From a virus, in IMG/VR virus record IMGVR_UViG_2784132095_000001: a stretch of 64,000 nt of DNA; one strand, 5' to 3'. The translations under genes and the position numbers were made by a program. Within the stretch, counting starts at the first letter, position 1. Every line of letters starts with the position of its first letter. Shown piece after piece: positions 50,761-64,000 of this stretch. The notes under the pieces are model-generated. The model was given only the letters and a program-made list of their open reading frames with translations. It ran no database searches and was not told where the DNA came from.

Positions 50761-52191
50761 ATGGCACACGATGATATCCGGAAAGGGAACGGCTTGAGGA
50801 TCAATTTCGGGGATCGTGTTTTATTCGAAGATCCTCCGTCAAAGCCGAATATAGCAGAGAGTATCTATCGGGACGAAGGAAGCCGCATCGAACCCGGCAA
50901 TCCGAATCGAAGTGCCGTCACCCCTGTTTCGAATGCGATTACTGGACCGATTTACGGTCCGAAGAACATCGCCGAGGAGCGGGTTTCCCCGCGTCCCGGA
51001 ATGACCTCGCCGCCACTTCCCGAGTGGCCAAATACCGCGGCGTCTGCCGTGTCTCCCCCCACATGGGAGCGCCGCGGTATTCCTACCATCCCTGCCGTTG
51101 ATTCGGATGTGTCGACGCCTGATGTGGTCGCTTCTCCCGGACAGCCGCAAGGGCTCAAGACGCCTGAAGGAATGGGCCCCCCTGCGCCGGAAAGCGCAAC
51201 CGCCAAATGGTTTAAGAACATGACGCCGGATCAGCGGACGGCGCTTCAACGGTCTCTTCTGGCGACCGGGCTTTCTTTGATGGCGTCTCAGCGACCCTCC
51301 CGGTATCCGGTTTCGACTGTCTCTCAGGTCGGAGAGGCGGGGCTGACGGGGCTTGCCGTTTACGATCGAACCATGGCGCAAGCTGGCGAAGCAGCGGATC
51401 GCCGGACGCAACTTGGATTGCGGGAGCGTCAGGTCGCTACAGAAGAAGCGCGGCTTCGCCTGGCGGTTGATGAGGCGATGAGGAAGGCCGAATTCGAAAG
51501 CCCTGGAACGCCTGGGACGGTCGGATACTCGGAGCGGCCGACGTCGCTTCAACTCAATACCGGAGGGGTTCAGGAGCGGCCGGTAGCGACCCGCGGCGAG
51601 GGGGCTGGACCTCGAGCGCTTGGGTTGAATCTCGGAGCGCCGGAGGCGTCTTCCGGGGCGACCCGGCCGGAGAGAGGGTTGGTGGTCACCCCGGGAAAAG
51701 AGCCCGGTCAGGGGTATCGTGCGCGGGAGGCCGATATCCGGTATCGAAACGCGGTGACCGACAAGCTGCTTTCCGAAACAGGCGGAGAGATCTTCAAGTT
51801 GACACTGGAAGAGAAGCGCCTTGGGATCGAGAAGGCGAAAGCAGAGATCGGTAAGCTTCGCGCGGAAGCGGCCAAAATGCCGAAGTCTCAACGCGATTAC
51901 CTCGAAGAGAAGGCGCAAGACGGATTTACGAAAGCCTATCTTGCGTACAAAAAGGAACATCCTGAGGACGAGGACGGCGCGATCGCGGCCGGATTCAGCG
52001 TTTACAACTCCCTCTTTCGCATGGGGATGGGTGATCAGTTCATTCCGGGGGAGGAAACTGGATTCTGGCCCTTTAAAGGCCGGGAGCCTGGTCAGTGGGT
52101 ATCTCCCCCGGCCGGCGCGAAGGATACCGGCCGCACCTCTGGCGGAAAGAAGGTTTATCAACTTCCTGACGGAAACTACTGGGTGCCCTGA
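50761..52191 (+). CDS. Putative ejection protein (Pro-rich, coiled coil)
   Basis: Stop overlaps the start of the giant ORF (TGATG). Confidence 0.7.
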
Positions 52192-55100
52192 TGCCGATCA
52201 TCCCCAAGGATCAAATCCAATTTGACGAAACGGATGCCTCAGCGTCGCCTCCTGGCGGCCAAATCTACAAGCCTGACCAAATCCGTTTCGATGATGAACC
52301 GGCCCAGGGAAAGGGGCTTTCCGTCGCCGGAGCGGGGCGTCCCGGCATCGGCCTGAAACCGGCCCACGAAACGCTTCCAGGGGCCGACGCAGAGACAATG
52401 CGGGATCAGCCAGCGACTTGGGGCGAGACGTTAAAAGCGATTCCGGAATTGACCTACCAGGCTGGAAAAGAGGCGGTTGGCGGGATTGCCCAAATGGTCG
52501 GCGAGGGCCGATCGACTCCCGATCCAATGGGCGGGATTGTGCTAAAGATCGCCGAGGAGTTAATGCCGGGCCTTAAAACCCCTCCCCCTCCTCGGGATGA
52601 AGCGATTTCCCAGTTCGGCGAGCGCCTGGGTGCGGAAGCAAGGGCGCGATCGGAAGAAATCACGCCGAAGAATCAGACCTTCTGGCAGAAAGCAACCACA
52701 CAGGCCGGTATTTCGCTTGGGAGCATGATTCCTGGGACTATCGCGTCGATCATTGCCGGAAACCCTGCGCCATTGGTGGGCTCCTTCGCTGCACAAGAGG
52801 CAGGGCAGAGTTACAGTGAGGCACGGTCCAAGGGACTCCCGGAGGGTCAAGCGGCTCTGTACGCTCAATTAAATGGTGTGATCGAAGCGGGGACCGAGTA
52901 TCTTCCGGCGAAAGTGCTTTTTAAATCAGGTACAGGCCCTTTTAAAAGATTGCTGAATCTCTACGCCGCGGAACTCCCCGGTGAGAACATCGCCACCTTA
53001 AGTCAATCCCTCAATGCCTACGTCAACGGATTGGATCCGAATCTAACCGGCGGGGAATTGATCGAGCGGATGAAGCTGACAACCGGGTCGACAATGATTT
53101 CCGCCGGTGTTCAAGGTGGGATCTCCACGGTTGGAAATCGGATGGCTGGACGAAGGGGCCTTCCGGTTGAGGCACCCAAAGCGACCCCTCCCCCAACCGG
53201 AAAACCGCCCGCGTCTCCGACCGAACCTCCAACCTTCACCCCGACGCACATCCTTCCGGACGGCACGGTGACCCAAAAGGTTGAAGAGGGGGTGGTGGTC
53301 GACCGCCAAGGAAACCTTTATTCCGAAGAGGACGCCACCCCGACGCCGGGACAACGAAGACCGCCGGATACCAGCTTCCGCGCGCGCGACCTGTCAGAAA
53401 TACCAGGTGAGACGCCGATCGGAAGGGGTTTGCCGGTTGAACCGGTTGCAGCTGCAAGCCCGGTTGAAGCGCCGACAGACGTCGACCTTCTGGTGCCGAC
53501 CGATCAGCCGATACCGCCTCCTGGGCGGGGCCTTTCCCTGGAGACGCCTGAGGCGCTGGCTCCCAGGGTCGAAGCCGATTTGACGACCGGGCAGGTGATC
53601 GAGCAGCCCGAAGCCGTCCGACCGACACCGGTTGAGACGCCGCAGGTTGTTCCGGACGCTCCGACCGGTCCTATCTCCCCTGAAATCGAGCGCCCCAGGC
53701 CACAGCAAACCATTCCCTCGATTCGTCAGGAGGTCGAAGTTCTTGATGAGGAAGCGGAGGACATTCCCCAGCCGAAGGAGATGGACGAAAAGAGCCCGCT
53801 CGGATTGAAGGGGACCGACAAGAATACCTCGCTCGCCGCCTTTGTTCGTGCTGCAGGTGGCATCAACGAAACGCAGATGGCGGGGGATGTGCGTCAACGC
53901 TTCTCGATCCGGGAAGGATTCAACCTGGTCAACCGAAAAACAGGCCTTCCCCTCGATCGGCTTCGGCAAATGGCGGCGCAACATGGGTTCGTTCCGGAAG
54001 ACTCCACCCCGGCCGACTTTCTTGAAGCGCTTCGTCGGGACGCCGACTCCCTTAAAGCGCTGGGGAAGGGATCCGTTTTCTCACGCTACTACTCGCCGGA
54101 CCTTCCTGGGTTTGACTCGCCGGAAGCCAAGGCGTTCGAGCGCCGGACCGATATCAAGAAAAGAAAGATTGTCAATCGAATGACGCCGGAGGAGATGAGA
54201 AAGGAACTCCTGACGAGCGCGAAGACTGGAATTCCGAATGATCGTGCCTACGAAGAGGCGATCGACAATACGACCGACAAGGGCCGTCCACATCGCCGCG
54301 ACGTTCAGGCTATGATCGACATGGACGGGCTGAAATGGGTCAACGATAATTTGGGCCATGAAGCCGGAGACGCTTTTCTTCGCGCGATCGGCGATGCGAT
54401 TAAAGAATCTGAAATCGAGGGATACCATTTAAGCGGGGATGAGTTTGCCGCGCAATTCGATCGGGAAGTGGACGCTTATGCGAAGATGGAAATATTGCGC
54501 GACGTTCTCAGAAATGGTATTGTAACCGTTGAGTATGCTGACGGGTCTTCTCGTCAGTTTAAAGGATTGGAGTTTTCCTATGGCGTCGGATCGGAAAGAA
54601 CCGCAGCAGACACCGCCCTCTACTCCGACAAAGCAAGGCGAAGGGAATCCGGGGAGCGGGCAAAAACGTCCACCGAACCGCCTCCTTCCCTGGTTGAAAT
54701 CACTCCCCCCGAATCCGGTGCGGATAACCGTGGAACTCCTGGGCCGCAAGACCGTGGTGGATCTGAAACCGAAACCGAAGACTTCCGATTAACTTCTCCC
54801 GAAGCACCCCCCGAAGAGCAACCTAAAGCGCCTACCGCCCAGCAGGGTGAAATGTTTCCTGGATCTGAGACGATGCAGACGGGCACCCGTCCGATCATCG
54901 CCGAAGAAACCGGGGAATTTTTCAAACCGCTTGAGCCGGAAATTGAACAGCCTTCCCTCCTCGATCAAAAACTCGAAGAAGCACGCGAACAGGTTGACAC
55001 CTCCCCCTCCGAAGCCCAAATTGAAGCCGGAAACTACCAAAAGGGACACCTCCGAATCAATGGTCTTGATATCTCAATAGAAAACCCGAAGGGTTCCACG

Positions 55101-58100
55101 CGGAACGTCGGCGGGAAATCCTTCAAGATGAACTTCGACTATGGGTATATCAAGGGAACGACCGGCGCCGACAAAGAGCATATCGACGTTTACCTCGGGC
55201 CCAACCTGGAATCGGAAAAGATCTTTGTCGTCAACCAGGTCGATCCCGATAAGAACAAATTTGATGAGCAAAAGGTCATGCTCGGATTCTCTTCCCCGGA
55301 AGAGGCCAAAACCGCCTACCTGAAACAGTACGACAATCCTGCCTTTTTCGGGTCAATGGTCGAAGTGAGTATGGAGGATTTCAAGGCGCGGATAAATGGC
55401 GGGGGGAAATTGATTGAACCGGCGGAGGTAATCAAGCTTCGAAAGCGGCTTTACGATGAGGGGGAGAAAAAGAAGCAGACGGGAAACCGGGAGCGGTTGA
55501 AAAACCTTCTCTCAGGCCGCGGTGGAATGATTGAAACCGATGCGGAGAGAAAAGCGCGGGAAGAAAAAAGCGCTTCCATTCAACAAGCGGAAGAGAGTAA
55601 GATAATTGCGTCGCCACAGGAGACAGCCGATGAGCCTGGATCAGTTCGGCCAACAAGCCAAAGCCCACTGGAAGGAACACCTTCCGAAGAAGTATCGTCA
55701 ACTCTCAGCAGCGGGGACGCTGGAGAAGGAACTTCTCGAAGCCCAAGAGAAGACGCACGACGAGATCAACCGTCTGATGACACAGGGGTTGACGTTCGAC
55801 GAGGCCTGGGAGCTGACGAGGGAGAAATATCTTCTCCTTCCACCGGAGAAGGGGTAGCCCGAAACCAATCCCACCAAGGGAAGCCCGCCGGGTACGACTA
55901 CATTATCCGTCCGGAGATCGACAACCTCGAAGAGGGCGGGCCCAAAGGTAAGTTCAAGCGAAACCTCGACGCGCTCAAACTCCTTAAAAACATCGAAGCG
56001 GAAGGACGTCTTGCCACCCCGGAAGAACAGGCCGTTCTTGTCAAATATGTCGGTTGGGGCGGGATGCCGGCCGCCTTCAACGAATGGGGCGACTGGTCGG
56101 ACGAGAACCGCCGTTTAAAAGAAGTCCTTACCGAGCAGGAATACGAGCAAGCGCGCGCAACCACACCGAACGCGCACTATACCTCTCCGGCAGTTATCGC
56201 GGGGATCTATAAGGCGCTGCAGCGTTTCGGATTCAATGGGGGGCGCGTCATTGAGCCGTCCATGGGGGTCGGTCACTTCTTCGGATTGATGCCGCAAGAG
56301 ATGGCGGCGCGATCGACCCGGACCGGCGTTGAAATCGACTCTCTCACTGGCCGGATTGCTCGCCAACTCTACCAGACCGCCGACATTCGCATTCAGGGTT
56401 TTGAAGACACGAAGCTTCCGAACAACTTTTTCGATGTCGCCGTGGGTAATGTTCCTTTCGGCGATTTTAAAGTAAACGACCTTCCTTATAACAAACATAA
56501 TCTCTTCATCCACGATTACTTTTTCGTGAAGTCACTCGACAAGGTTCGTCCGGGTGGTGTGCTCGCCTTTATCACCTCCTCCGGCAGCATGAACAGCGGC
56601 CGATCTGAGAAGATGCGCCGGTTGATGGCTGAACAAACAGAATTCATCGGCGCGATTCGTCTCCCCTCCTCGGCGTTCAAAAAGATCGCCAACACCGAAG
56701 TCACAACCGATGTGATCTTTCTTCGAAAGCTTCTTCCTGGGGAGAAGCCGACCGGACCCGCCTGGATTGAATCGAAGGACAGCGATTTCAAGGGAGAGGG
56801 CGGGGTACCTCTTAGAAACAACGAATACTTCATCGCTCATCCCGAGATGATGCTGGGGAAGGTGACTGACGACAAATTACATCCGGGCCGGATGGGGTTG
56901 GCGCCGGACGGCCGCGATTTAACGCAGGCCATTGAGGAGGCGGTTTCCCGTCTTCCTGAGAACGTTTTTAGGGATGCTCCAAAGAAGACCGTTCAGGAAA
57001 TTCTCGAAAGGCTTCCGGCTCCGGAGGATGTCAAACCCGGCGCGTTTACCCTCCAGGACGGAAAACTTTACATGGAGAAGGGCGGGCAGCTCGTCGCCCC
57101 CATGACGGCGACCGATCGGCCGATTGAGGGGGTGGCCGCCGAACGCGTTAAAGGGATGATCGCAATTCGGGATGCGGTTCGTGAAGTGATCCGCACTCAG
57201 ATGATGGAGTCTTCCGAAGAAAATATTCTTCGCACACGGAAGCAGTTAAATCAAACCTACGATCGATTCGTTAAAAAATACGGCTATATCAATTCACAGC
57301 CGAATAACGTGGTTTTCCGAAACGATCCGGATTACTACACCCTGGCCGCGCTCGAGAAGTGGGACAAAGAAGCGAAGACCGCGACCAAGGCGGACATATT
57401 CAGCAAGCGGACCATCGAAAGAAACCTCCGTGCCAGCCGGGTCGATACCTCAAAAGAGGCGATGCTCGCTTCTTTAAACGAGATGGGCCGGCTTGATTTT
57501 GACCGAATGCGGGAGTTGACCGGAAAGAGCGACGCCGATCTTCAATCCGAGTTAAAGGGATTGATCTTTCTCAATCCGGAAGGAAGTTGGGAGTCCGCCG
57601 ACGAGTACCTTTCCGGCAATGTGCGGGAGAAACTTAAGGCCGCGGAGGGGGCTGCTGCTGCAGATCCACGGTTTAAAGAAAATGTCGAAGCTCTCAAAGC
57701 GGTTCAGCCGGAAGAATTGACCGCCGGAAAGATCGATCTTCGCCTCGGTGCTTCCTGGGTGCCGCCGTCTGATGTGCGCGATTTTATAAAACACCTTCTT
57801 GGGATCGATACCAGGGTCGGCTATTCGGCGGGGATGGCAACGTGGTCGGCTAATTTTGTCCGCGGAAATCTTGACTCAACCGCCAACCAAACCCAATACG
57901 GTACCTCTCGCTATTCCGGACTTTCTCTGATTCAGGATACGCTCAATCTGAAAACCGCGCGAGTCTATGACACCTTCCGGGAACCGGGTGGCGGGGAGAG
58001 ATCCGTCCTTAACGAAAAAGAAACCCTAGCCGCACAGGAAAAACAGGAAGCGATCAAGCAAGCGTTTAAGAAGTGGGCGTTTGAGGATCAGGAACGGGCC

Positions 58101-61100
58101 GAACGGCTGGTGAAGATTTACAACGAGCGGTTTAATTCCATTCGGACTCGGCAGTATGACGGCAGCCATTTAACCCTTCCTGGCGCTTCTCCTATTATCC
58201 AGCTTCGCCCCCATCAGAAAGACGGAATCTGGAGAATCGTTCAATCCGGAAATACCCTCCTGGCGCACGTTGTTGGCGCTGGAAAGACCTTCACGATGAT
58301 CGGTGGGGCGATGGAGCTGCGCCGGCTGGGGATCGTTAAAAAGCCGGTTTTTGTCGTTCCGAACCATCTTGTCGGTGAGTGGGGAAATCAATTCCTTCGT
58401 CTCTATCCCGCCGCCAACATTTTGGTTACGACCAAAGCCGACTTCGAGAAGAAGAACCGTCAACGGCTGATGGGGAAGATCGCAACCGGTGATTGGGACG
58501 GGGTGATCGTCGCCCATAGCGCCTTTACGAAGCTTCCCGTCAGCGATGAAACAGTAATCGAATTCCTCGAACGGGAATTGACTGTATTGAGAGATTTCCT
58601 CGAAGAGGCAAAGCGAGAAGCCGGTAAGAGCGGAAACCAGATCGTCAAGGAGTTGGAGAAAGCGAAAAAGCGTCTTGAGGCAAAAATAGATGCGCGCCAT
58701 GACGCCATTAAAGCACGGGCCGATCGCGGGGTGAGTTTCGAAGAAACCGGGATCGACATGTTGTTGGTCGACGAAGCCGACCTTTTTAAAAATCTTTTCT
58801 TTCCCACCAAAATGACGCGCGTGGCCGGACTCGCTCGATCGGAGAGTGAACGCGCCTTTGATATGTATATTAAGACGCAGCTGATCAATAAACTCACAAA
58901 CGGCCGCGGGATCGTCTTCGCCACCGGAACACCGGTCAGTAACACCATGGCTGAGGTGTTCACAATGCAACGGTATCTGCAGCCTCAAACCCTGGAAGGG
59001 CAGGGGCTCTCTCATTTCGATGCCTGGGCGTCTCAATTCGGCGATACGGTCACCGCTTTGGAGCAATCCCCAACTGGCGCCACTTTCCGCATGAATACCC
59101 GGTTTGCCAAGTTTACCAACGTGCCCGAGCTCATGTCGATGTTCATGCAGACGATGGACCTGAAAAACCGGGAGATGCTGAACCTTCCGACCCCCAAGAT
59201 CAAGGGTGGGAAACCGGAGATGGTCATCGCCAAGGCGACGAACGAATTGAGGCGGTTTGTCGAAATTCTGGAAAAACGTGGACAGGCGATCAAGGAAAGG
59301 AAGGTTAAGCCGGAAGAAGACAACATGCTCAAGATTACGGGTGACGGCAGGAAGGCCTCGCTCGATATTCGCCTGGTTCAGCCGATGGCGCCGGAAGCAA
59401 AATCCGGAAAGGTCAACCTTGCAATTCGAAACGTGGTCGATATTTGGGAAAAGACGGCCAACGTGAGGGGAGCGCAATTGGTCTTCCTGGATCTCTCCAC
59501 CCCGAAAGGTCAAAAGGAGGCTGGCGATAAAGAAGCGCCGAAACCTCCCGCGTCGGAAGGGGTTGAAGAGGCTCCACTGAAAGACGAAGGAGAGGCGGAT
59601 CGGGCGGTAGAAACCGCTGAGGAAGCGTCGCTTCGCGGATCGGTCTACAACGATATAAAGCGAAAACTGATTCTGCAGGGAATCCCGGAGAATGAAATCG
59701 CCTTCATCCACGATGCCGATACAGACGCAAAGAAAGAGCAACTCTTCAAGAATGTGAATTCCGGCAAGGTCCGGATTCTGATGGGATCAACCGAGAAGAT
59801 GGGGGCCGGCACCAACGTTCAGGAGCGTCTTGTCGCTCTTCATCACCTGGATGCGCCGTGGCGACCGCGCGACCTTGAACAGAGAGAAGGCCGGATCATC
59901 CGGCAGGGGAATAAACTCTACGAGGCCGACCCCGAGAATTTTCAGATTCAAATCTTCCGCTATGCGACCGAAGCGCCTTCTTTCGACCTGTATATGTGGC
60001 AGCAACTTGAATCGAAAGCGAAGATGATCGCTCAGGTCATGAGTGGCCGCACCGACATTCGGGAAATCGAAGACATCGGGGATCAGTCGATTCGGTCGAT
60101 CGAGGAGATGAAAGCGGCGACCTCCGGAAATCCCCTTCTTAAAGAAAAGGTGGAAGCCGATTTTGAAATCCGAAAACTCTCTCTGCTGAAATCCCAGCAC
60201 GATGACGCGCAATTCCGGCTGCGCCGCCGGCTTTCTGAAATGGGAAGCGATATCCCCAGGGATAAGCGGAACCTTGAATTGCTCAAAGCGGATATCGCCC
60301 ATCGGGACAAAAACAAATCCGAAAAGTTCAAGATGGAGGTCGGCGGGAAGGTTTATACCGAACGAAAGGATGCCGGCGAGCAAATCGTCCGGATCGGCGC
60401 CGGGTTGCAGGCCGATAAGAAGTATGATCAGTGGCAACCGATCGGACGGTACAACGGGTTTAATCTAGAGGTTGGGGCCTATGCTCTTGATATTTCCATC
60501 CGGATGAGCCGGCCGGGCGGGATGTATCATTATGCCAACGTAACGGATACCTTTCAGGGGACCATTGCCAGCATTGACGCCACTCTCCGCGGAATGGAAG
60601 CAGCCCAGGAAAAGATCGAGCGCAGGATTGATAAAAACGAAAAAGACGTCGAGGAAGTTAAGAAAGAAATCGGAAAGCCCTTCGAGCAAGAGGATCGGCT
60701 TAACAATCTGGTTGCGCGATCGGCCGAAATCGAAAAGATTTTAAAAACTCCCGTTCCGGAAGCACCGAAGACCGATGAACCGCAAGCGCCGGCCGAAGAG
60801 GGGGAGGCAGAGTTTTCGGTTGCCCGCGGCGCTTTTCGCCTGACAAACGATCAATACCGGAAGATCGTCGCCGACCTTCAACGGATCATCGCTCCCGGAA
60901 GCCGGGTCGTTCTGAAAGGTCAAATCACGGCCAATGCCGAAGGAAACGAGAAAGCCCTTGCCTCCTGGGGGATGGGTGATACTACCGGCGATATCAGGCT
61001 GGCCGGCCTTCACCGGACCGTCCGGTTGGACAATGGTCAACTGGCCTCCCTGATTCAACTCTCCCTGCGCGACATGAACGAGGGTACCCCCTATCATGAA

Positions 61101-64000
61101 GCGTGGCACTCCGTCGAAAACCTTCTTCTCTCCGACAAAGAGATTGAGACCCTGCGCGCTGCCTTCCCCGAAAAAGATTGGGTAGCGTCGACCGAGCGCA
61201 CCGCGGACGCCTTCGCCGATTGGGTGGCGAAGAAGAAGATCGAAGCCCCGGGCCGGGTGCGGCTGCTCTTCCTGAAAATCCGGACCTTCTTCGAGAAGCT
61301 GAGAAACGCGCTCCGCGGCCGTGGGTTTAATTCTGTCGAAGTCCTCTTTGAAAAAGCCTTCGCTGGGGAGCTGCGGGATCGAACGACACGCGGCCAAGTT
61401 GGGGGAGAGAGTTTCTCTGTCAAAAAGTACAAAACCCCCGAAGAGGCGAAACAGGCGACCCTCGAAGCGCGGAAGGAGAAAGAGGAAAAGCGCAACCTCA
61501 AAATCAAGCTGCGCGCCGCGGAGAAAGCATCGAAAGAAGGCTTCCGCGCGGGTGTCTCGGAGGAGCGCGCCAAAGCCAATGCCAAAATCGCCGAGATGAA
61601 GCGGGACCGGACGGCCATTGTCAATCGCCTGAAAAACACCTTCGCTGAAAAGTTGGAGGAAATCGGCCGGGTCCAGGAGTTGAAAGACCTGAAAGCCGAC
61701 ATTCTTACCCGAAACGTCGAATCGATCAAGCAGGAAATCGCCGACTACGCCAAGAAGCACCTTCCGATGGAAGCCCGCGGGGCGATGCTCTCGAACGTGG
61801 CGAAGGCGAAAACTCACGCCGACCTGGTTCGCGCGTTCGCTCGGATCGATAAAATCGCCGAACAGGTGGAGAGAAAGGGGCTCATTGCCGAATTCAAAGA
61901 CGTTCTGCAGCGAATCTCGGAGAGCAACACGATCGCCGTTCCCTACCGGAATCGAATCCGGGATCTTCTCTCGAGCCTCGAATTTTCAGAGGGCCGATAC
62001 CGGCGCGCGAAAGCGCTGATGATCGACGGCGAAATGGATCCGGCCACCGAAGCGATGATGGAAGCGATGTCCGTTCTTGCGCGCCGGCCGCTCTCCGATT
62101 TATCGAATGATGAAATCCGGGCGATGCTGGAAGAAATCGTTCTGCTGGAAGAGCTGGGCCGGCAGGCCGAAATTACCAGAAAAGAGCTTTGGGAAGCCCG
62201 TAAAGAGGCGATTAAGGAAGCGGTGGTTTCCGGGACGGTCCCGATCGAGAAGCCCGAAGGAAAAGCCCTTGCCGCCGCCCAGCACATCGATTTGGCTGTC
62301 ACTCCGATGGATGCCCTCATTGACCGGTTGGACGGGGGAAAGGGGTCGTATGACGGCGCCAACATGACCTATTTCAAAAAGCCGATCGATTCCGCCTGGG
62401 GGAAATTCCTCGATGCGATCGACCCGATCAAAAAACAGGCCTGGGAGAAAGCGGGAAAGCTGCAGCTGACGAACGAGGATTTCGAGCGGATCGGGATCTA
62501 CGCCGCGGATCAACAGGAAGGGGGCCGGGAGAAGCTTTTAAACAACGGGTTAACCGAAGAGGAGATCGACGCGATTCAGCTCCGTCCTTCCGAAATGGAA
62601 TTCTACCAGTGGATGAGGAAGAAGCTCGATCTGCTGTGGCCGCGGATCGCAAAGATCATGGCCGACGTTTACGGAAAACCCTTTGGGAAGGTGAAGAACT
62701 ATTTCAGCTTCATGACCGATTGGGAAAAGCTGACCGAGATGGAGGTGGTTTCCCGGTTGATCGAAGCGCCGGAGTATGCCCCTCGGACGAAACACCCTGA
62801 AATGAGCTTTACAAAATCCAGGATCGGAGCCGGAAAGCAGAGGATCAAATTAAACGCCATGGAGATCTTCCTCCGCCATACCGAGAACGCCGAATACCTT
62901 CTCAATATGGGACCGACCGTGAAAATGCTCTACGAGGTCGCCAACTCCAAGGAGTACGGAGCGGCCGCCGGCGATCGGGGGCAATCGCTGATGGTTCAGT
63001 GGTTGGATCTGATTGCGCGGAAGGGAGGCATTCAGGGGGACCGGCAGATTGCCATTCTCGACATTCTTCGTCGCAACGTGGGGGTGGCGACCATGTCGTT
63101 TAAGGTCTCCTCGGCGCTGGTGCAGCCCTCCTCGATCGTCACCGGGGCGTCGATGATCGGCCGCTACGCCTTCACCGGCAGTATGGACGTGGCGACGTCG
63201 AAGCGGTGGCGTGAATTTCTCACAAAGAATTTCCCGGAGATTAGAGACAGAGAAGCCGACGATCCGGCCTTTATGGAGCTGTCCGACCGGAAATGGTTGG
63301 CCCGGATGACGAAGATCGGACTCGGACCCCTCAAAAAGCTGGACCTGTACGCCGCCTCTGCGATCACCGCCGGCGCCTACCGGAAATACCTCAATGAGCA
63401 CGGACAAACCCTGGATTTCGAGAAGCCGAACAAGGACGCCATTGCCTATGCCGAATTGATGCTGCGGCGCACCCAGGCCTCGATGTTCTTCAAGGATACC
63501 CCTCTGGCGATCTCCCGCGGCGCGCTGACGGGAAACCGATCACTCGATAAAGTGCTCTTCCAGTTTCAAAACTTCGCGCTGAATAACTGGAGCCTGATTC
63601 GCCATGATCTTTGGCGCGCCGGCATCCGGGAGCGTAATCCCGCCAAAGCGGTCCGAATCTTCACCTGGTTGACCCTGGCGACCCTCGCCGAGGTCGGACT
63701 TCGGGATCTGGCCGGGTTCCTGACGGGAATGGATGATGATGATCCAGTCGAAAAAGAAATGGTCCAAGAAGCATTGAACAAGGTTCCCTTCCTCTCTCAT
63801 TTGGTTTCAGCGATCGTGTATCAGGATGTGCCGATCCCGGTTGTTTCTACGTTGATGCGAATCCCGAAAGGGATTGGAAGAATGTTGTTCGGCAAAGAGC
63901 CGGAGACGAAGGCGCGCGGCCTCGTCACGGCGGTAGAAGGAGCGGGGCGGGTGGCCGGGATTCCTGGGGCTGCTCAGGTGGGGCAAACAGCAAGGGAAGC
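52191..64000 (+). CDS. Giant polyvalent virion-type protein, at least 3936 aa (3' end outside window; missing from ORF track)
   Basis: ATG at 52191. All domains translated by hand lie in this frame, and the track lists no stop-terminated ORF in it. Confidence 0.9.
54207..54638 (+). other. GGDEF (diguanylate cyclase-like) domain within the giant ORF
   Basis: TGIPNDRAY...[23 protein letters not shown]...YHLSGDEF (54432-54446)...FSYG...ADTALYSDK. Confidence 0.88.
54990..55395 (+). other. Inorganic-pyrophosphatase-like (InPase) domain within the giant ORF
   Basis: [15 protein letters not shown]...[11 protein letters not shown]...[21 protein letters not shown]...[10 protein letters not shown]. 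Confidence 0.85.
55630..55857 (+). CDS. Overprinted (+1 frame) 75-aa gene, TnpV-like helical protein
   Basis: SD AGGAG 7 nt before the [28 protein letters not shown]...[18 protein letters not shown]; the main frame here is a low-complexity linker. Confidence 0.7.
55920..56800 (+). other. N6-adenine methyltransferase domain (DarB-like)
   Basis: YVGWGG, NAHYTS, EPSMGVG (56253-56273), NVPF (56448-56459). Boundaries approximate. Confidence 0.9.
58200..60050 (+). other. SNF2/SWI2-type helicase domains (DarB-like)
   Basis: AHVVGAGKT (58263-58289), DEAD (58770-58781), [24 protein letters not shown] (59880-59912). Boundaries approximate. Confidence 0.92.
60850..61380 (+). other. Zincin-like metallopeptidase domain
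   Basis: HEAWH (61095-61109) with downstream ERTADAF. Boundaries approximate. Confidence 0.7.

Follow-up and report, generated by a model that had tools for sequence, protein, structure and literature searches.

A complete gene can be read from within another one, as in the spanin pair Rz/Rz1, where the Rz1 gene is embedded inside Rz on the same strand. An arrangement of this kind was found in the IMG/VR virus record IMGVR_UViG_2784132095_000001, of which a whole stretch of 64,000 nucleotides (nt) was analysed (hereafter the window). The window carries a giant gene coding for a polyvalent, DarB-like protein, inside which lies a small open reading frame (ORF) of 75 codons that is probably the gene of a TnpV-like protein. 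As in Rz/Rz1, a complete same-strand gene with its own start occupies the +1 frame wholly inside another gene and both products appear to be kept. The Rz and Rz1 products form one complex and both of their frames are constrained, while here one of the two frames codes for an unconstrained linker in a protein of ~3,940 residues. A class of embedded genes has been mentioned for the Bcep22-like phages, and virion association was reported for the giant homologues of JC1 and Bcep22 (PMC9144972).

The giant protein of the window is annotated as DarB-like in its relatives. DarB of phage P1 is a packaged methylase-helicase anti-restriction enzyme that needs the small accessory proteins Ulx, Hdf, DarA, DdrA and DdrB. 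The nested product was considered as the counterpart of a known Dar accessory protein, a candidate that was dropped: P1 has no homologue of it, Ulx and Lxc are unrelated to it, and the genes of both lie downstream of darB and are not nested.

TnpV of the Tn4451/Tn4453-type elements is a small helical mobile-element protein with the same predicted fold as the nested protein. Its Xis-like role in Tn4451 is only postulated and TnpV has no demonstrated function; the tnpV genes of these elements adjoin recombinase and Mob genes, not methylases (PMC3158075). The protein of the window is shorter (75 amino acids) and scores lower than canonical TnpV. Unlike Tn4451-type tnpV, its gene has no adjacent serine recombinase and lies inside a giant gene of a prophage virion module, which is not the setting of a transposon.

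Literature searches, full text included, found no description of a nested or overlapping gene in DarB-like or polyvalent genes. The 2017 survey of polyvalent proteins (PMC5512222) does not mention TnpV, overlaps or frameshifts, and the small gene is absent from the papers on Atu_ph08, POI1126 and JC1/Bcep22.

The nested gene and its giant host frame

With a probability of roughly three in four, the ORF at 55630-55857 truly codes for a protein and is nested, in the +1 frame, in the part of the giant DarB-like gene that encodes a disordered linker. It runs on the + strand from ATG (55630-55632) to TAG (55855-55857) and codes for a 75-amino acid product (P0001). A direct check of the bases found the elements described in the initial annotation (GATAAT hexamer, AGGAG, 7-nt spacer, ATG, TAG and +1 frame) exact to the base. 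The pair is a nested same-strand overlap, since the inner ORF is complete, has start signals of its own and is read in a different frame from the outer one.

The giant frame (52191..>63998, at least 3936 amino acids) codes for the Pfam domains GGDEF, InPase, Eco57I N6-methylase, ResIII/SNF2 and Helicase_C, which place its product among the polyvalent, DarB-like proteins. The small ORF sits between the InPase domain (residues 941-1068) and the Eco57I-type methyltransferase (MTase) domain (residues 1405-1490). Over the small ORF, the giant-frame translation is rich in S, G, E, D, R and P and has 12% hydrophobic residues, versus 29% in the rest of the giant. The main frame had been remarked to use unusual codons here, and this is borne out by a codon-adaptation index built on the giant's own codons, which is 0.53 for the giant frame and 0.76 for the +1 frame.

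Recurrence of the nested arrangement

A tblastn search of 50,697 phage records with P0001 gave 21 full-length matches with 40-53% identity. The 20 matches listed all lie beneath an annotated giant gene and the small ORF is annotated in none of them (0/20). Nine of the named phages were fetched, and in eight (Pavtok, PEp14, LASTA, Itty13, Atu_ph08, POI1126, VvAW1 and Mwe-JY07) the small ORF is found in the +1 frame within a giant frame that is open across the whole locus. PBC5 is the sole exception: there the small ORF shares the frame of the N-terminal part of the giant, and this part ends at the small-ORF stop. Four distant IMG/VR contigs (L001-L004), found via the methylase region, also have a TnpV-like ORF in the +1 frame of a linker rich in G, P, E and R.

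A search with the alignment of the small protein returned 112 loci, 80 on viral contigs and 32 in bacterial genomes, with hosts as diverse as Rhizobiales, Burkholderiales, Chlorobia, Planctomycetes, Myxococcota and Thermodesulfobacteriota. At 101 of the 112 loci a long open frame encloses the small ORF, which is read in its +1 frame. An independent sample was made of 80 viral contigs found through the methylase module alone: 56 of them have the small ORF upstream, always in the +1 frame (56/56) and always nested (56/56), with a median of 16.5 nt between its stop and the first aligned methylase residue. Homologues conserving the main-frame linker and lacking the +1 ORF, the outcome that the initial annotation had named as fatal to dual coding, were looked for, and the result was the reverse.

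The small gene is absent from all 60 genomes examined from the host's class, which shows only that the element is mobile. A plasmid search with the small protein gave a single match, a POI1126-like phage-plasmid, and the same search with the L001-type peptide gave none.

Three of the phage loci deserve a comment. In PBC5 (L009/L031, the same record; NC_003324 26155-32697) the methylase frame opens 270 nt upstream, and between locus positions 1233 and 1501 its frame departs by one base from that of all relatives, through either a genuine split or an error in the old sequence. In Itty13 (L007, NC_070969 5602-8823) RefSeq places two 'hypothetical proteins' on the strand opposite the giant DarB-like frame; since this frame is open over the 3.2-kb locus and holds the nested gene, the RefSeq annotation is probably on the wrong strand. 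Bcep22 gp75, which among such giants has been studied best, contains a 108-codon +1 ORF (L134:1471-1794; record 52337-52660) behind AAGGAGG, in a linker rich in G, R, A and D just 5' of the methylase module, with a weak match to the small-protein profile (expect value, E, 0.0035).

Constraint on the two frames

In the aligned core of the overlap, nucleotide entropy at the three codon positions of the small ORF is 0.92/0.86/1.21. The most variable base is the third of the small frame, which is the first of the giant frame, while the giant's third base is the least variable. Just downstream, in the methylase region, the giant frame has normal entropy (0.72/0.62/1.49). Substitutions were counted per opportunity in 27 phylogenetically independent pairs, giving 0.115 for changes silent in the small frame that alter the giant, 0.102 for doubly silent changes and 0.024 for changes that alter the small protein and are silent in the giant. 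The frame-specific dN/dS (omega) that the initial annotation had called for is thus ~0.23 for the small protein, as under purifying selection, and ~1.1 for the linker, as under free drift.

The giant frame, free to change in sequence, is nevertheless held open. The probability of it being stop-free, computed given each peptide and the local codon usage, has a median of 0.011 (0.004 for the window), and the frame is actually open in 90 of 101 loci. The stop-creating T at position 3 of the small frame before AA/AG/GA codons is never used (0/2942, versus 7.6% elsewhere), and no locus (0/101) has an open third sense frame there. As judged from sequence, dual coding is strict, with a sequence constraint in the small frame and an openness constraint in the giant frame. 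The small protein being constrained and the giant being kept stop-free, one stretch of 228 bases therefore serves to maintain both polypeptides. One antisense frame (minus strand, L016-L127) is also stop-free across the small ORF in 50/101 loci, probably a side effect of composition.

The two translations also differ in predicted structure. The AlphaFold model of P0001, built with 91 sequences, is a four-helix bundle with a predicted local distance difference test score (pLDDT) of 96.1 and a predicted template modelling score (pTM) of 0.81. The giant-frame translation modelled with its flanks is coil without secondary structure at residues 207-298 (pLDDT <50), followed by the methylase module at 86-97. 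Nothing was drawn from the InPase part of that model, which is poor owing to a poor alignment.

That the frame is open by chance, or is what remains of an inserted gene in decay and yields no product, might be suspected because many frames are open in GC-rich sequence, annotation pipelines never call the small ORF and a word-indexed near-length search of 5.8 billion proteins gave a single match. All selection tests oppose it, as do the closed third sense frame and the high pLDDT obtained from a 91-sequence alignment. Recurrence, start signals and selection tests together refute this reading.

Internal initiation and a separate polypeptide

Start signals are conserved in the family. Of 101 unique ORFs, 95 start with ATG, 5 with GTG and 1 with TTG, and 95 of the 101 have a Shine-Dalgarno (SD)-like tetramer or longer motif 4-20 nt upstream of the start. 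The background frequency of such motifs is 22% at random positions and 17.5% at the remaining ATGs in these loci. Twenty of the 101 ORFs have a stop in their own frame no more than five codons upstream of the start, and in those cases there is therefore no frameshift entry from the giant frame. With these signals, ribosomes must reach the small gene by initiating internally and not by shifting out of the giant frame.

A profile search of 1.84 billion representative proteins gave 1745 matches, 609 of them at E <= 1e-10. The best 150 of the 1745 are all 73-376 residues long, and among these the small protein is always predicted as a polypeptide separate from the giant. Two short called proteins that were traced, P0003 and P0004, are called only because the contig end cuts the giant gene.

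Programmed frameshifting into the small frame would yield instead a truncated N-terminal product ending in the TnpV-like domain, as in the PBC5 annotation. It is the frame of the PBC5 giant, which ends at the small-ORF stop, and the presence of the small-protein segment at the C-terminal end of PHROG 938 that speak for such a fusion. PBC5 is however the only case of this type among the loci (L031 is the same record), and upstream stops, an ATG and SD conserved at a fixed position, and the shortness of the profile matches (<=376 amino acids in the best 150 of 1745) led to its rejection; it is nearly refuted. The true dual-coding region with an independent start that the initial annotation had inferred is upheld by the conserved +1 ORF with its ATG and SD, by substitution phase, omega and stop avoidance, and by a fold set against coil.

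In phrog_938 ('endolysin', 2185 positions) the segment matching the small TnpV-like protein spans positions 2084-2160, which fits the inclusion of PBC5-type in-frame fusion sequences as family members. Matches to phrog_938 can mislabel the nested gene because of this segment. The coordinates of the features discussed are collected in Table 1.

Table 1. Features of the overlap region in the window.
Feature	Position	Strand	Remark
Giant polyvalent DarB-like ORF	52191..63998	+	3' end past the window; GGDEF, InPase, N6-MTase, SNF2-type helicase
InPase domain of the giant, amino acids 941-1068	55011..55394	+	5' of the overlap; varies among relatives
GATAAT, possible -10 hexamer of a putative internal promoter	55601..55606	+	Sequence
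Giant-frame linker, low-complexity, overprinted on the small gene	55602..55877	+	Modelled residues 207-298, pLDDT <50
Left ends of RNA-library contigs of four runs	55614..55618	Strandless contigs	Cover the SD and the entire small ORF
Shine-Dalgarno AGGAG, 7 nt 5' of ATG	55618..55622	+	SD-like motif in 95/101 homologous ORFs
Nested small gene, 75 amino acids and TAG, TnpV-like predicted four-helix protein	55630..55857	+	+1 frame of the giant
Beginning of the conserved DarB-like methylase-helicase module	55896..57359	+	Homology starts ~13 residues past the small-gene stop

Kinship with TnpV

P0001 matches the Pfam family TnpV (PF14198) with E 8.8e-5 and 22.9 bits, below the curated threshold of 27. 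Among its relatives, 39 of 91 match PF14198 at E <= 0.01 and the nested copy in L001 passes the cut-off with 30.1 bits. PF14198 has no match in 14 control genomes. A window copy below the cut-off together with matching relatives indicates a divergent sister group of TnpV rather than a canonical member. The resemblance to TnpV noticed in the initial annotation thus holds for the family, in its matches and in its fold, and stays below threshold for P0001 itself.

The fold leads to the same family. ESM Atlas clusters of 90-108 residues superpose on the P0001 model with template modelling (TM) scores of 0.91-0.95 over 73-75 residues; two of them, with TM 0.91-0.92, are annotated as TnpV, so that the predicted structures share one fold. 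The best neighbour in the PDB is PG0816 of Porphyromonas gingivalis (2apl; Z 7.7, root-mean-square deviation 2.2 Å over 68 residues, Foldseek probability 0.80), which has 16% identity to the small protein at a Z below the safe level for helical bundles. PG0816 has no known function and adds no mechanism. The structure searches with the small protein gave no DNA-binding fold, and the sequence search of the PDB gave only designed helical repeats, which are spurious. A feature search of the Protein Atlas returned only unnamed or TnpV clusters, with no functional lead.

P0001 keeps the whole bundle and is without the acidic tail and short helix found at the carboxyl terminus of most relatives, whose median length is 105 amino acids. 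Its length of 75 amino acids is common to P0003, with which it shares 64% identity.

Linkage to the methylase-helicase module

Homology to the methylase module of the window is found downstream of the small ORF in 91 of 93 nested loci, starting ~13 residues past its stop, and the two others have no downstream sequence. An InPase-like region lies upstream in only 40 of 93 related loci. The MTase is constant downstream and the InPase variable upstream, and the small gene therefore accompanies the beginning of the methylase-helicase module and not the domains ahead of it. L042 has a giant split at this junction, where the upstream gene terminates and an open methylase frame starts ~230 nt ahead of the small ORF.

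Stand-alone copies also exist, one near AlpA and one near a Mob_Pre relaxase, which recalls the Tn4451-type elements. Six loci were initially taken for decayed giants with an intact small ORF; tblastn found no MTase-helicase in them and they are now considered stand-alone copies.

The domain is found in other protein contexts as well. In Pseudidiomarina (L123:2468-3256) it forms the N-terminus of a 262-amino acid protein whose C-terminal half is hydrophobic and membrane-like. P0015 (L130:3790-4893) is a 367-amino acid protein with a TnpV-like N-terminus, encoded directly after a tyrosine integrase in an island that contains AlpA. No giant gene is near either fusion. On a short contig (L131:1013-1495) a 312-residue protein with a C-terminal TnpV-like domain is followed by a cpYpsA-domain gene.

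Transcription in the lysogen

Four RNA-Seq libraries, all from one study, contain the region. Their contigs, aligned with 54600-56900, have left ends at 55618, 55617, 55617 and 55614, on the SD and 8-12 nt past GATAAT, while the right ends are ragged (56117-56376); the contigs cover the whole small ORF. Left ends so closely clustered are what a + strand transcript with a primary 5' end would give, which is a hint. Since contigs give no information on absence, the lack of cover at ~54886-55613 is not usable as silence.

A scan of 55200-56100 for sigma-70 promoters gave nothing, GATAAT being without an acceptable -35 partner; the best -35 read by eye is TTCAAC, at a 16-nt spacer. Hexamers resembling a -10 box are found at the corresponding position in 11 of 101 family members against a background of 1.8%, a modest excess that is uncorrected for kinship. 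The small gene may be transcribed independently in the lysogen from a start just upstream of its SD. Independent expression in the lysogen, suggested in the initial annotation, thus finds a hint in contigs that begin at the SD, while the GATAAT is not part of a full sigma-70 match.

The same four libraries contain a discrete contig of ~330-344 nt in the GGDEF part of the giant (left ends 54534-54542, right ends 54862-54885), which may be an internal or antisense small transcript.

Possible functions of the small protein

The initial annotation had suggested that the small protein could be an inhibitor, a chaperone or a packaging adaptor for the adjacent enzymatic domains. Tentatively, the small protein would most likely serve the neighbouring methylase-helicase module as a separate accessory subunit, either a chaperone or a regulator. 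Its gene has an invariant position at the first residues of the module, in-frame fusion is strictly avoided and the two are arranged in cis. The small protein would be made from the same mRNA and at the same spot as the giant, and in the producing cell would hold the giant enzyme in an inactive or transfer-competent state without itself being part of the polyprotein.

VirE1 is a small secretion chaperone for VirE2 that is encoded beside its translocated substrate. By analogy, the small protein could be likened to VirE1 or to the chaperones of type III secretion systems (T3SS), being likewise small, helical, mildly acidic, encoded in cis with a large protein that is putatively transferred, and never fused to it. 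No sequence or fold relation to secretion chaperones was found, and the only related match, of one relative to a T3SS chaperone family, is weak and non-significant (E 0.012).

Several observations weigh against the accessory-subunit proposal. Nine loci carry the small gene without an MTase-helicase within 2.4 kb, and these stand-alone copies, with the homologue encoded after an integrase, mean that the protein can act without the giant in cis. About 24 of the 80 close MTase modules have no nested ORF detectable with the hidden Markov model, of which two may by eye hold divergent copies, and P1 DarB has no nested small ORF nor is a homologue found anywhere in the P1 genome; the small protein is therefore not required by every such enzyme. 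The copy of the window is a short form without the C-terminal tail that scores under the Pfam TnpV cut-off. The RNA evidence consists of strandless, level-less contigs from one study, for which DNA carry-over is possible. Position is the sole basis of the functional link to the MTase-helicase. The small protein and its homologues are predicted from sequence, and published virion proteomics covered annotated proteins only (PMC9144972).

A possible though less favoured reading is that the small protein is an autonomous mobile-element factor (anti-defence, regulatory or a lysogen-expressed 'moron') whose position is historical, the gene order having been frozen by the fusion. This would agree with copies near AlpA, a Mob_Pre relaxase and an integrase that have no MTase-helicase nearby, with the L123 copy fused to a membrane domain, with the ~30% of close MTase modules that are without the small ORF, with lysogen RNA contigs beginning at the small-gene SD, and with the recombinase and Mob neighbours of Tn4451-type TnpV (PMC3158075). 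The gene abuts however the first residues of the MTase module in 56/56 and 91/93 nested cases while the upstream domains vary; were this no more than an accident of history, more frequent decay or relocation would be expected, and two open frames are costly if the gene could simply move.

It is very unlikely that the protein acts as a recombination directionality factor of the Xis type. The idea goes back to the postulate made for Tn4451 TnpV (PMC3158075) and one homologue is indeed encoded directly after a tyrosine integrase, but in phages the small gene is located within a late gene of the virion module, at a great distance from every integrase, and its product is predicted to be a mildly acidic four-helix bundle, not a winged helix, for which structure searches gave no DNA-binding fold.

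Extended to the whole family, the accessory-subunit proposal becomes more doubtful. TnpV-type proteins would then be a separately translated subunit of the DarB-type methylase-helicase anti-restriction modules of phages and conjugative elements, held to one-to-one synthesis; the enzyme would be inactive or transfer-competent until injection, with the small protein staying behind.

Origin and significance of the overlap

Across the family, the codon-adaptation index is 0.69 for the small frame versus 0.46 for the giant frame, with 82 of 90 loci giving the small frame the higher value. Judged as overlapping genes usually are, the small gene would be the older partner: its frame has native codons, a confident fold and stand-alone homologues in small mobilisable islands, while the giant frame is disordered, odd in its composition and unconstrained. 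Because the nested gene has stand-alone homologues, it is the host frame that looks like the newcomer. The upstream virion or effector modules might have become continuous with the methylase-helicase when translation passed through the small gene in a different frame, the linker being written over the pre-existing gene as the modules were joined.

Long and deeply conserved out-of-frame overlaps are rare in bacteria and their DNA phages, and gene callers systematically miss them. The present one apparently arose from a module fusion across a pre-existing gene, not from the de novo birth of the nested gene. Its combination of a folded, constrained frame with a linker that is unconstrained yet obligatorily open makes it a good system for studying how overlaps originate.

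In Bcep22-, PEp14- and LASTA-like phages, several of them under study for phage therapy, the system of giant anti-restriction proteins that are injected would gain a new component with the small protein. The uncharacterised TnpV family gains a defined and testable genetic setting. If the small protein is an accessory subunit of the methylase-helicase, this would be the first function for TnpV, a family named about thirty years ago, and it would explain why two open frames are kept across hundreds of elements: a gene placed in the linker of the giant would force one-to-one synthesis of both proteins on the same mRNA.

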